Of a stretch of 64,000 bases of DNA, positions 7,344-15,995 are shown in pieces. The position numbers and the translations under genes are program-made. Source of the stretch: Candidatus Heimdallarchaeota archaeon (GTDB lineage Archaea; Asgardarchaeota; Heimdallarchaeia; JABLTI01); assembly GCA_018238155.1 (NCBI GenBank), contig JABCTZ010000032.1, positions 128,001 to 192,000 of the forward strand, read 5' to 3'. Under the pieces are notes generated by a model. The model had not been told where the DNA came from. It did no database searches and saw only the letters and a program-made list of their open reading frames with translations. Within the stretch, counting starts at the first letter, position 1. Every line of letters begins with the position of its first letter.

Positions 7344-7796
7344 CTATAGTAATTTCTCTTGTTGAAAATCACCAATCAGTTCTCCAAACGATATACCATT
7401 ACTTAATGCATGTGTATATGAGATTTTGTAATTAGTTCCATTGCGAACACTCAAAAGTTGATCTGGAACATGTAAGAATGAAAATCCTTTGCGACGATTT
7501 TTGAATTTTACACCAACATAAGGTTCAAAGCCAATTCTCTTGCTGAATGCAAGTAAACCGACGATTTGCTCCTTGCTAATATAAAGAGTATTTTTCCGTA
7601 TTGTCTTAATTTCAAGAACAAAGAATTTCTTTCGTTTAACTGAACCCGCAATTAGATCTGGTCTTGGAAGAATTGTGCCACCTCCAGATGCAGGCGCACG
7701 AAGAACTGCAAAACCCGCTTCCCAGAACATATGAACTAAATCTCTTTCTGCTTTAACACCACTTGAAGACAAATACACACCCATCATAATGTACAA
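7344..7796 (-). CDS. hjc: Archaeal Holliday junction resolvase
   Basis: G..AERDL...GFAVLRAPASGG...PDLIAG...EIK; true start probably TTG near 7772. Confidence 0.9.
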   Translation of the reverse strand: MYIMMGVYLSSSGVKAERDLVHMFWEAGFAVLRAPASGGGTILPRPDLIAGSVKRKKFFVLEIKTIRKNTLYISKEQIVGLLAFSKRIGFEPYVGVKFKNRRKGFSFLHVPDQLLSVRNGTNYKISYTHALSNGISFGELIGDFQQEKLL

Positions 7797-7942
7797 TAAA
7801 TCAAATAAAAATTCTAGGAAGAGATGGCTAATGATTTTGTTGAAATCGTACTAATAAGAGTTATATTTGAAATCTAAGAGATAAAATTTGTAATTACATC
7901 TTTCTAAAAGATCAAAGGTTTGATTTAAAAATAGAGAATTGA

Positions 7943-8090
7943 TCTGGAAAGCGACAGCCCAAAAATCGACCATTGTTTCAGGGAAAACAATGGGGAGCGC
8001 GTATGGACGGGCTTATCGCAATCCAGAATGCAGGTGAACAGGTCTCATAATGAGACCGGTTTTTTTTTGAACAAGGTCTCTCTTGTTACA
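7943..8090. ncRNA. Candidate structured RNA or cis-element (nested long hairpin plus two small hairpins and a T9 run)
   Basis: GC-rich island with nested complementary blocks 7943-48/8022-27, 7951-54/8016-19, 7956-60/8009-13, 7970-78/7985-93; palindrome 8041-8057; hairpin 8070-8087. No family recognised. Confidence 0.55.
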
Positions 8091-8112
8091 AGCATGATTT
8101 TGGATTGATTTT

Positions 8113-8847
8113 CTAATTCTCAGCCATTTTCATGACCAGAGATATTGCTGAAATGACATCTTTAGCGGGAATACCTTCTCCTCGTTTGTAAATCAAAAGT
8201 GTGCCTTTATTAGATATTTGAGCACTAATTTGACTTCTATTTGGGAGATCAATAAATCCTCTAAAGTAGCTAATAACTCCTTGTCTTCTATAAATGGTCC
8301 ATTCTGCACTATCAAGAATATCGCCATTCAATTGAATTTTATTAAGAGCTTGGTTCTCTAAATCGGATATCTGTACTGTTTTAAGTAAAGCCGCATCCTT
8401 GCATAAATTAACCATAGCTGTATCATTTAAATTTACACTATCGAATTCAACTCCAAGGAGCTCCATTAATGGCACTAATCCTTTCTTAGACACCCATGAA
8501 GTTCCTCGACATTCGAGATATTTTTGTTTAGTATGAATAATATATTCGCATTTTCCTTGTGAATATACTACTTCATTTGTAATTTGATCATCCTTCATTC
8601 TTTGCACTGTGATTGGTTGTCCAATTGTATAGTAGACACTTATCATATTGCTATCTGTATCTACATCTGAAAATCCCTCGTAGAATTTTCTGTTTTTAAA
8701 TTCAACTGGATGTTCTTTCAATTTTTTGACAATCGTTTGTGCACTACCTAAAGTTCCGCCATTAACATGATATAATCTTAAAGGTAAGACCATACCTCGT
8801 GGAATTATTAAACCATTTACTTGGAGAGCCATTTTTTCACCTTGCAT
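8113..8847 (-). CDS. Uncharacterised alpha/beta protein; true start probably ATG at 8832
   Basis: Clean ORF with AGGTGA Shine-Dalgarno 4 nt before the ATG at 8832 and an upstream TATA. Confidence 0.75.
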   Translation of the reverse strand: MQGEKMALQVNGLIIPRGMVLPLRLYHVNGGTLGSAQTIVKKLKEHPVEFKNRKFYEGFSDVDTDSNMISVYYTIGQPITVQRMKDDQITNEVVYSQGKCEYIIHTKQKYLECRGTSWVSKKGLVPLMELLGVEFDSVNLNDTAMVNLCKDAALLKTVQISDLENQALNKIQLNGDILDSAEWTIYRRQGVISYFRGFIDLPNRSQISAQISNKGTLLIYKRGEGIPAKDVISAISLVMKMAEN

Positions 8848-8853
8848 TAAAGT

Positions 8854-8918
8854 CCGAGGACTCCTAACTGACCTCGGTTTCTATTGGAATCCAACTTATG
8901 TGGTTCTCTCTTTATAAA
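8854..8918 (-). promoter_or_regulatory. Promoter and leader of the 8113-8847 gene: TATA, palindrome, 5'UTR hairpin
   Basis: tttataaa 8911-8918; ttgga-a-tccaa 8884-8894 near the expected TSS; ccgagg/cctcgg stem 8854-8877. Confidence 0.5.
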
Positions 8919-14417: not shown

Positions 14418-15995
14418 GTGATTAAAATGAAAAACAAGAGAAAAGATAGTTTGATTTATTTGATTTTTTTATTGGGAGTATTAATTTTTTCAATATACTC
14501 ACTAAACAATGTCCAAAGTAAAGGAATAGATCAAAATAACGATTTTATCTATAGGATAGCATCTGATGTTGAACCAAACAATAATTTTACTCAAGCTTAC
14601 GAAGTATATAATTATGATAATTGGACTGGAACATTTGATGAACATGGATCTGATCCATGTGATTATTATAAGATATATCTACAAAATTCCGACATTCTAA
14701 CTATAAAATTGAACATTTATCCTGATTTTGAATTTTATTTCCAAGTTTATAATACAACCTTTCAAGTAATTTTTCATACTTCGGATTATCAAGATAGTTC
14801 ATATGAGATAGATATTACCGCAAATACTACAGGATACTACTATTTTAGTGTGAGTGGTTATAGTACATCTTATAATTTTGAGGTTTTAAGAACAAATGGA
14901 AGTGGGGGGAATCCTGGAGAAGACGAATTAGAACCAAATGATGATTTTGGAAGTGCTACTCCACTCACTTTAGATGGAGATGGAAACCCTATAGACCAAT
15001 TAACTATTGATCCTGCAGGTGAAGTGGATTTTTATTCAATTGACCTGGATCAAGGGGATGACATTAACATTCTATTATGGAATCTCCCTGCAAATTATGA
15101 TCTCGCTCTATTTTATCCTAATCAAACGCTTGTAAGTGAATCTACCAATACAGGCACAACAGATGATGAAATTGATTATGAAAATGCAGAAGTATCTGGG
15201 GCTTACTATATTCGCGTTTCAGATTCAGATTATTATGCAGGAGTATATAATCTTAGAATTTTGTTGGAAGAATATACACCACCAAATAATGATTTTGAAA
15301 GTGCTGCTCCTCTCACTTTGGATGATGATGGAAAAACAACAGAACAACTAACAATTGATCCTGCAGGTGAAGTGGACTTTTATTCAATTGATTTGAATCA
15401 ACGAGATGATATTGAAATTTTGCTATGGAATCTACCTGCAAATTACGATTTAGCTCTATTTTATCCTAATCAAACACTTGTACATGAATCAACCAATACA
15501 GGCACAACAGATGATGAAATTGATTATGAAAATGCAGAAATATCTGGAACTTACTATATTTGCGTTTCAGACTTAGATAATTATGTCGGAGTATATAATC
15601 TAACGATATGGTTGAAATCAAATATATCACCAAATGCAAATTTCACAGTTAATTCAACTATCATAGATCAAGGAGAATGGGTTTTCTGCACTTTCATAGG
15701 CGCTCTGGGAGATCTTCCAACCGAATACCTTTGGAATTTTGGTGATGGTACAGTAAACATAACGACTCAAAATTCTACACATCAATATTTGAGTTTTGGG
15801 GAATTTAAAATCACTTTAATAATTACTGACTCAGATGGTGAAACCTCAACCTTTGTAAAAACAGTAATTGTTAGAAGTTCAAGTAGAACAAGTGGATATT
15901 CCTCTATTTTTGGTTTATCCTTAACCGTTGGTTTCATATATATTCTATTTATGTTTGTAAAAAAGGAACGGGATGGTTTACGAAAAAAAAACTAA
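14418..15995 (+). CDS. Cell-surface protein: signal peptide, 3 PPC (pre-peptidase C-terminal)-like domains, PKD domain, C-terminal TM anchor
   Basis: EPNN/DDF..A, D.Y.I.L..GD and NYDLAL motifs; YLWNFGDG PKD motif; SGY+TM+basic tail. Confidence 0.85.
   Translation: MIKMKNKRKDSLIYLIFLLGVLIFSIYSLNNVQSKGIDQNNDFIYRIASDVEPNNNFTQAYEVYNYDNWTGTFDEHGSDPCDYYKIYLQNSDILTIKLNIYPDFEFYFQVYNTTFQVIFHTSDYQDSSYEIDITANTTGYYYFSVSGYSTSYNFEVLRTNGSGGNPGEDELEPNDDFGSATPLTLDGDGNPIDQLTIDPAGEVDFYSIDLDQGDDINILLWNLPANYDLALFYPNQTLVSESTNTGTTDDEIDYENAEVSGAYYIRVSDSDYYAGVYNLRILLEEYTPPNNDFESAAPLTLDDDGKTTEQLTIDPAGEVDFYSIDLNQRDDIEILLWNLPANYDLALFYPNQTLVHESTNTGTTDDEIDYENAEISGTYYICVSDLDNYVGVYNLTIWLKSNISPNANFTVNSTIIDQGEWVFCTFIGALGDLPTEYLWNFGDGTVNITTQNSTHQYLSFGEFKITLIITDSDGETSTFVKTVIVRSSSRTSGYSSIFGLSLTVGFIYILFMFVKKERDGLRKKN
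14934..15629 (+). repeat. Intragenic tandem duplication, 348-bp unit (one PPC domain)
   Basis: gatcctgcaggtgaagtgga at 15009 and 15357; long near-identical stretches. Confidence 0.9.

Follow-up and report, generated by a model that had tools for sequence, protein, structure and literature searches.

What does the GC-rich island between the gene for a 239-aa protein and hjc encode in this Heimdallarchaeota genome, from which strand is it read, and to which gene does it belong? In the 64,000-nt stretch of DNA analysed here (the window), a sequence-only reading had singled out positions 7943-8027 as an 85-nt nested hairpin and proposed it as a candidate novel noncoding RNA, with a place in the 3'UTR of the preceding gene, in the leader of hjc or in an independent plus-strand transcript. 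The four nested complementary blocks are present exactly as described (tctgga 7943-7948/tccaga 8022-8027, gcga/tcgc, agccc/gggct and ccattgttt 7970-7978/aaacaatgg 7985-7993), and they enclose an asymmetric internal loop of 9 x 15 nt. The contrast in base composition is also as reported, with a GC content of 0.40-0.49 in the element and 0.22-0.30 in the flanking AT-rich spacer. The 85-mer folds better on the minus strand (-35.9 kcal/mol, z -5.5) than on the plus strand (-30.5 kcal/mol, z -3.6), again in agreement with the earlier description, and none of 200 shuffled sequences equalled either value.

The 85-nt boundaries proved too narrow. Past 8027, the aligned related loci share an invariant GCAGGTGAACAGGTCTC, then a variable hairpin, then the likewise invariant GAACAAGGTCTCTCTTG..AAGC, and conservation ends at ~8099, so that the hairpin at 7943-8027 is the 3' two-thirds of a larger element of ~158 nt (7942-8099). 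Of the two covariance models that we built, R1 represents the plus sense and R2 the minus sense; they locate the element at 7942-8099, with 159.6 bits (E 2e-36) for R2. The element is single-copy in its own genome; neither a second copy nor a long complementary target was found elsewhere in that genome, where no complementarity exceeds 19 nt. BLAST searches against relatives recovered it from every assembled genome of the same genus and also from a sister genus, and homologs are present in 10 of the 11 genomes of the family and at all loci retrieved by means of the 239-aa protein. In most loci, nucleotide identity to the window copy is 71-81% for the RNA, whereas the ORF reaches 60-76% and the 90 nt of spacer that follow reach 52-60%. 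A copy with a 30-nt insertion (L036) has 64% identity, and at the most distant locus the values are 71% for the RNA, 60% for the ORF and 43% for the protein. By nucleotide identity, conservation of the RNA equals or exceeds that of the 239-aa ORF.

Collecting the spacer from relatives also allowed us to assess covariation. Alignment A5 contains 21 distinct sequences fitted to the covariance model, and 95.4% of its cells are standard pairs. Both sides change at 16 of the 36 pairs (48 cells), and none of 500 column shuffles reached these values. In a control in which the 3' partners were slid by 1-3 columns, pairing was 34-49% and the covariation score fell from 0.240 to 0.03-0.06. Compensatory changes above shuffle controls, the mark of a conserved structured RNA, are thus present; they lie in the rod, where they involve 9 of the 16 pairs of P1-P3 and 7 of the 9 pairs of P4 (Table 1). 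Constraint is not limited to the helices, and ~40 unpaired positions within CAAGAGAGACCUUGUUC, UGUUCACCUGC and ACGCGCUCC are invariant among the 21 distinct sequences. We are highly confident that 7942-8099 is a real, conserved and structured RNA of ~158 nt on the minus strand. The proposal of a novel conserved RNA is borne out in relatives in both respects, conservation and covariation.

The minus strand is settled by four independent lines of evidence, all read from the aligned sequences. First, when the 36 pairs are read in the minus sense, 15 of them contain G·U or U·G cells, 35 in total, whereas only four cells are A·C or C·A, three of them in a degenerate copy (L074); on the plus sense, the counts are reversed. 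Second, in 10 of the 21 sequences the apical loop of P4 on the minus sense is C(UUCG)G, U(UUCG)G, C(UCCG)G, C(GCAA)G, U(GAAA)G or G(CUUG)C, and the plus-sense complements of these loops are not recognised stable tetraloops. Third, on the plus sense, 8 of the 21 sequences have a run of U6-U9 in the middle of the element, and an archaeal polymerase would therefore terminate ahead of the last invariant block. Fourth, a run of at least four T lies 1-12 nt past the RNA in 20 of the 21 loci listed and 26 nt past it in L074. In the window, the U5 tract at 7927-7931 is probably an archaeal transcription terminator; as a sequence feature only, the run of at least 4-5 U that characterises archaeal oligo-U terminators is present shortly after the element on the sense strand.

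These observations bear directly on the proposal of an independent small RNA on the plus strand, transcribed from a promoter at TTTAAAAA and ending at a hairpin followed by T9. Both motifs are present in the window genome, TTTAAAAA at 7924-7931 and the hairpin with T9 at 8041-8069; plus-strand folding of the helices is feasible as well, and L015 contains one U·G pair that is A·C on the minus sense. However, the wobble counts favor the minus strand by 35 to 4 and the tetraloops are meaningful on that strand only. Moreover, the T9 tract occurs in a single clade and lies inside the conserved block, with conservation extending 30 nt beyond it. Between the end of TTTAAAAA and the stem there are just 12 nt. 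This spacing is too short for a TATA box, given that archaeal TATA boxes lie ~20-23 nt upstream of the start site, and the A/T tract reads equally well as the minus-strand U5 terminator. The two motifs stand as described, but the independent RNA built on them fails and is extremely unlikely. The element might also act as DNA, i.e. as a cruciform or a protein-binding site tied to the flanking recombination genes. Its inverted repeats and its position between an RdgC-fold gene and a Holliday-junction resolvase gene would suit such a role, but strand-asymmetric G·U wobbles and RNA-type tetraloops are unexpected in DNA, and helices with bulges and the 9 x 15 loop are kept by compensatory changes. 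We find a DNA-level element scarcely credible.

The features of the RNA and of the adjoining gene are listed in Table 1. From 5' to 3', the RNA would consist of block CAAGAGAGACCUUGUUC, the hairpin GGUCUC/GAGACC, an exposed linker UGUUCACCUGC, the rod P1-P4 and the oligo-U terminator. Block A includes the first copy of a GAGACCU(U)GUUC motif that is present twice in the RNA; it may form a small ACAAG/CUUGU hairpin (8071-8086), a candidate pairing of invariant sequence. Hairpin H2 varies by a minus-sense U·G wobble in seven sequences, and genus g2 (L018) has GUGUUUCC/GGAAACAC in its place. The mean predicted unpaired probability of the linker is 0.74-0.90 in 13 of 15 orthologs, and L018 has a second copy of it. 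In the large internal loop of the rod, AUACGCGCUCC is unpaired in the consensus structure and would lie on one side, with the U4-U7 tract facing its core from the opposite, U-rich side. Among the 21 distinct sequences, this core, ACGCGCUCC, does not vary, and the first two bases of AUACGCGCUCC hardly do. The U-rich tract, UCGAUUUUU, resembles the Sm site AUUUUUG in several species, and a protein might bind there. The module of hairpin and UUCACCUGC is duplicated in the sister genus (L018).

Table 1. Coordinates in the window of the conserved RNA, its parts and the adjoining 239-aa gene.
Feature	Positions	Strand	Basis or remark
Whole conserved structured RNA, ~158 nt	7942..8099	minus	covariance model R2 and homologs
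Invariant block A, CAAGAGAGACCUUGUUC	8069..8085	minus	identical in 21/21 distinct sequences
Hairpin H2, GGUCUC/GAGACC	8041..8057	minus	100% of cells paired
Single-stranded invariant linker UGUUCACCUGCA	8029..8040	minus	invariance and predicted unpaired state
Rod domain P1-P2-P3-internal loop-P4 (the hairpin of the sequence-only reading)	7944..8026	minus	compensatory changes
P1	8022-8026/7944-7948	minus	
P2	8015-8019/7951-7955	minus	
P3	8008-8013/7956-7961	minus	
P4	7985-7993/7970-7978	minus	
AUACGCGCUCC, nearly invariant, 5' side of large internal loop	7994..8004	minus	21 distinct sequences
UCGAUUUUU, U-rich 3' side of internal loop	7961..7969	minus	U4-U7 run in 21/21 sequences
U5 tract 12 nt past P1, probable archaeal transcription terminator	7927..7931	minus	
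239-aa RdgC-fold protein gene	8113..8832	minus	ORF open to 8847; orthologs begin MALQ
Shine-Dalgarno AGGUGAA of the 239-aa gene	8836..8842	minus	conserved 4-6 nt before ATG in orthologs
Promoter and 5'UTR of the mRNA of the 239-aa gene	8854..8918	minus	alignment of 19 upstream regions

Two further structures were considered and rejected. A long-range helix RUGC/GCRY that would close the 5' domain has a covarying look on the plus sense, but it fails on the minus sense and does not track from clade to clade. A switch between mutually exclusive hairpins, in which the GAGACC of block A and the downstream GAGACC would compete for GGUCUC, is unsupported because the downstream hairpin alone covaries in L018, where block A is unchanged and left without a partner. 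Two other GCAGGTGAA sites in the window were dismissed as the repeated coding motif of a 525-aa ORF. This ORF (14418-15995, plus) contains a ~350-nt repeat encoding IDPAGEVDFYSIDL-type units. In the genus g2 copy (L036, 3241-3430), the 30-nt insertion duplicates the module made up of the hairpin and UUCACCUGC.

To which gene does the RNA belong? With the 239-aa protein as anchor, we fetched 22 loci from genome and metagenome contigs, and the RNA lies immediately 3' of the gene in all 22; three distant loci, in which protein identity is 42-57%, also carry it after the gene. In the orthologs, the 5' edge of the RNA is 0-18 nt past the stop codon (13 nt in the window copy), and there is no conserved TATA-like box in the 30 nt before this edge in the loci examined. 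In a survey of 83 class genomes, RNA and protein turned up together, in the same members of a single family, and a sample of 149 other genomes of the phylum yielded no copy of the RNA. The absence of both from one family member (G008) is only apparent, as its contig is broken inside hjc. A remote homolog of the protein in another family (G042) has no such RNA after its gene, and thus the protein does not strictly need the RNA. Three metatranscriptome contig sets from the same study do not cover the element and speak neither for nor against its transcription.

In the window, the gene downstream of the RNA on the same strand is hjc (Pfam Hjc), which raises the possibility that the RNA is a leader, i.e. 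a riboswitch-type attenuator in which ligand- or protein-dependent folding of the rod decides between termination at the U-tract and read-through into hjc. The arrangement invites this idea: hjc is the next gene, in the same orientation, in genus g1 as well as at the distant loci, a stem and a U-tract lie between RNA and hjc, and the large conserved internal loop is aptamer-like. However, in the sister genus g2 (L036) the RNA is kept after the 239-aa gene while the next gene encodes an LRR protein, which argues that the RNA belongs with the 239-aa gene and not with hjc. In addition, the distance between RNA and hjc varies from ~75 to 190 nt, no Rfam riboswitch matches, and a conserved A/T box before the ATG suggests that hjc has its own promoter and a leaderless mRNA. 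As a consequence, the leader proposal was not upheld, and we consider an hjc attenuator very unlikely. The A/T box, TTTTTATTT, is located at 7788-7820 of the window (minus), ~21-29 nt before the ATG of hjc.

By contrast, the other minus-strand proposal, a 3'UTR of the gene at 8113-8847, agrees with the position of the RNA directly after the stop codon in all related loci. Given the spacing of 0-18 nt, the U-tract and the lack of a promoter, the simplest reading is a 3'UTR that is transcribed together with the 239-aa ORF, and such co-transcription is likely. We lean, on balance, towards the RNA being part of the 3'UTR of the RdgC-like mRNA and acting in cis.

The 239-aa protein has 48 homologs, all from Asgard/Heimdall archaea and all annotated as hypothetical, and it has no sequence-level match in Pfam, NCBIfam or PDB. 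Its AlphaFold (AF2) model (pLDDT 88, pTM 0.82) matches E. coli RdgC (2owl) with a Foldseek E of 9e-9 and a VIA-align Z of 14.3 over 220 residues (rmsd 4.2). The next structural matches are CENP-L (Z 9.6), followed by Iml3, CENP-N and TBP-type domains, with RdgC well above them. On this model, the product is an RdgC/CENP-L-fold protein, an assignment of fold that does not imply a ring dimer or DNA binding. The protein is confined to one Heimdallarchaeia family and is encoded beside hjc. A literature search returned no description of this RNA or of any Asgard RdgC-like gene.

The upstream region of the gene is conserved as well. AGGTGAA is found at the Shine-Dalgarno position in only 2 of the 41 long ORFs of the window. 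A TATA box, GTTTATAA, lies at ~8911-8918, and the invariant UUCCAAUAGAA (8879-8889), which follows about 23 nt later, is probably the 5' end of the mRNA. The 5'UTR contains a hairpin at 8854-8877 with the loop GGUCAGUUA; its stem sequence differs among species, with covariation of the stem seen by eye only, and RNAalifold found no consensus structure in the 5'UTR alignment.

How might a 3'UTR element of this kind act? We infer a cis-acting function in 3'-end formation and post-transcriptional control. The stable rod together with the U-tract would set and shield the 3' end of the mRNA, and the 3'UTR domain would control expression of the RdgC-like protein in cis. By the most concrete route, the exposed UUCACCU would pair with AGGUGAA, the Shine-Dalgarno sequence of its own mRNA, resulting in communication between the 5' and 3' ends or in translational auto-inhibition. 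The nearly invariant loops would offer a platform to a binding protein, which might be the encoded protein itself.

The linker UGUUCACCUGC is invariant, and its UUCACCU has 7-bp complementarity to the conserved AGGUGAA. Both UUCACCU and the Shine-Dalgarno sequence are invariant, and the pairing is therefore without covariation support. Additional GCA pairing beyond the Shine-Dalgarno match is restricted to the G000 clade, and the energies of whole 5'UTR-3'UTR duplexes are no better than those obtained with shuffled 3'UTRs. AGGUGA is simply a good Shine-Dalgarno sequence, which counts against a special pairing. The anti-Shine-Dalgarno mechanism is, at present, a lead only. UUCACCU also resembles UCACCU in the 3' tail of 16S rRNA. 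The linker and P1 (UUCACCUGCA..CUGGAU, window 8022-8040) share ACCUGC, CUGGAU and UCACCU with the 16S 3' end GAACCUGCGGCUGGAUCACCUCCU of the same genome (L076, 2965-2992). As a longer match, this likeness was rejected, being non-significant in local alignment with 52 of 300 shuffles scoring as high.

The constraint on ~40 unpaired nt exceeds what a terminator or a stability element needs. It is explained by an RNA that acts in trans or is bound by protein no less well than by a cis-acting 3'UTR, and is the main argument for a trans-acting or protein-bound role. In the trans-acting alternative, the RNA is stable and acts either as a small RNA derived or processed from the 3'UTR, or as a ribonucleoprotein subunit or partner of the RdgC-fold protein, in which case neighbourhood would signal co-function and not control in cis. 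The strict co-occurrence of RNA and protein is in keeping with this idea, as is the invariance of ~40 unpaired positions where protein identity is as low as 43%. The repeated GAGACCU(U)GUUC and the duplicated hairpin-UUCACCUGC module in L018 are as expected of multivalent binding sites, and the U-rich tract is Sm-site-like. Against it, the RNA has no conserved promoter of its own and begins 0-18 nt past a stop codon, and the genome holds no complementary target longer than 19 nt. A trans-acting RNA is thus possible but doubtful in our estimate.

A more specific form of this alternative, which we regard as quite improbable, is that the RNA is the dedicated partner of an RdgC/CENP-L-fold ring protein, acting in trans in a ribonucleoprotein specific to this lineage of Heimdallarchaeia. 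The invariant loops, the repeated GAGACCU(U)GUUC sites and the 16S-tail-like UUCACCUGC..CUGGAU segment would then act in trans, e.g. as a sink that titrates Shine-Dalgarno sequences or factors of ribosome biogenesis, or as a means of loading the ring protein. If true, control of recombination would be coupled to an RNA cofactor.

Whether it acts in cis or in trans, this is a large RNA with strong constraint on its unpaired segments, and it is inherited together with a protein that is itself uncharacterised. By its fold, this protein connects RdgC of bacteria with CENP-L/N of the eukaryotic kinetochore; its gene adjoins that of a Holliday-junction resolvase. Should the RNA regulate or partner the protein, it would offer an entry to post-transcriptional control and DNA recombination in the closest archaeal relatives of eukaryotes. 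To our knowledge, very few conserved structured RNAs have been reported from Asgard archaea, and we know of hardly any archaeal 3'UTR elements with covariation support besides SECIS. Our alignment, together with its covariance model, could be the starting point for a new RNA family.

How does this RNA compare with known classes? The sequence-only reading had been unable to match the hairpin to any of them, and our searches lead to the same result. At gathering thresholds, Rfam 15 (4227 models) has no match in the whole window. At E<=10, only five chance matches were obtained in 7780-8130 on both strands, with 10-17 bits compared to thresholds of 46-100, and ARAGORN found no tRNA or tmRNA gene in the window. 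The RNA is a new family, confined to one Heimdallarchaeia family, and is of a known general kind, namely a conserved structured UTR or noncoding RNA element.

Among archaeal guide RNAs, box H/ACA guides share with it the shape of a stem, a large internal pocket and a second stem, and the occurrence as a GC-rich island of an AT-rich genome. However, the upper stem of our RNA is an uninterrupted helix of 8-9 bp capped by a UNCG, GNRA or CUUG tetraloop or a hexaloop, and has no L7Ae site. The trinucleotides past P1 vary (AUC, CCA, UCA, AAC), with no conserved ACA. H/ACA RNAs have a spacing of ~14-15 nt between pocket and ACA, and the 3' strand of the lower stem is, with 18 nt, too long for this rule. 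Assignment as an H/ACA RNA was thus rejected for lack of a K-turn or K-loop, lack of an ACA box and wrong geometry. Box C/D was rejected because the 21-sequence alignment has no invariant RUGAUGA, and CUGA is limited to one clade, where it falls in the variable apical loop. Archaeal SECIS elements are similar in being conserved, covarying hairpins with an internal loop in mRNA 3'UTRs, and both act, or are presumed to act, on their own mRNA. By contrast, our RNA is ~158 nt long with three further conserved blocks and has no Rfam SECIS match; a SECIS was rejected, as neither the upstream ORF nor its orthologs contain an internal stop codon, UGA included.

Two further comparisons concern the mRNA ends. 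In bacteria and archaea, 3' ends formed by a stem and oligo-U often double as regulatory RNAs. The RNA described here shares with these ends and with 3'UTR-derived small RNAs a stable terminal stem, a U-tract and a position directly after a coding gene, but it is far larger and far more constrained in sequence, and this constraint lies in unpaired segments. In haloarchaeal mRNAs, sequestration of the Shine-Dalgarno sequence in cis and functional interplay between 5'UTR and 3'UTR are known. The likeness here is the exposed, pyrimidine-rich UUCACCU that is able to pair with the mRNA's AGGUGAA; unlike in those mRNAs, the candidate anti-Shine-Dalgarno sequence is ~800 nt downstream, in the 3'UTR, and lacks covariation support. 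By analogy, archaeal 3'UTR elements and regulatory RNAs embedded in terminators appear to be the nearest functional counterparts of this RNA.
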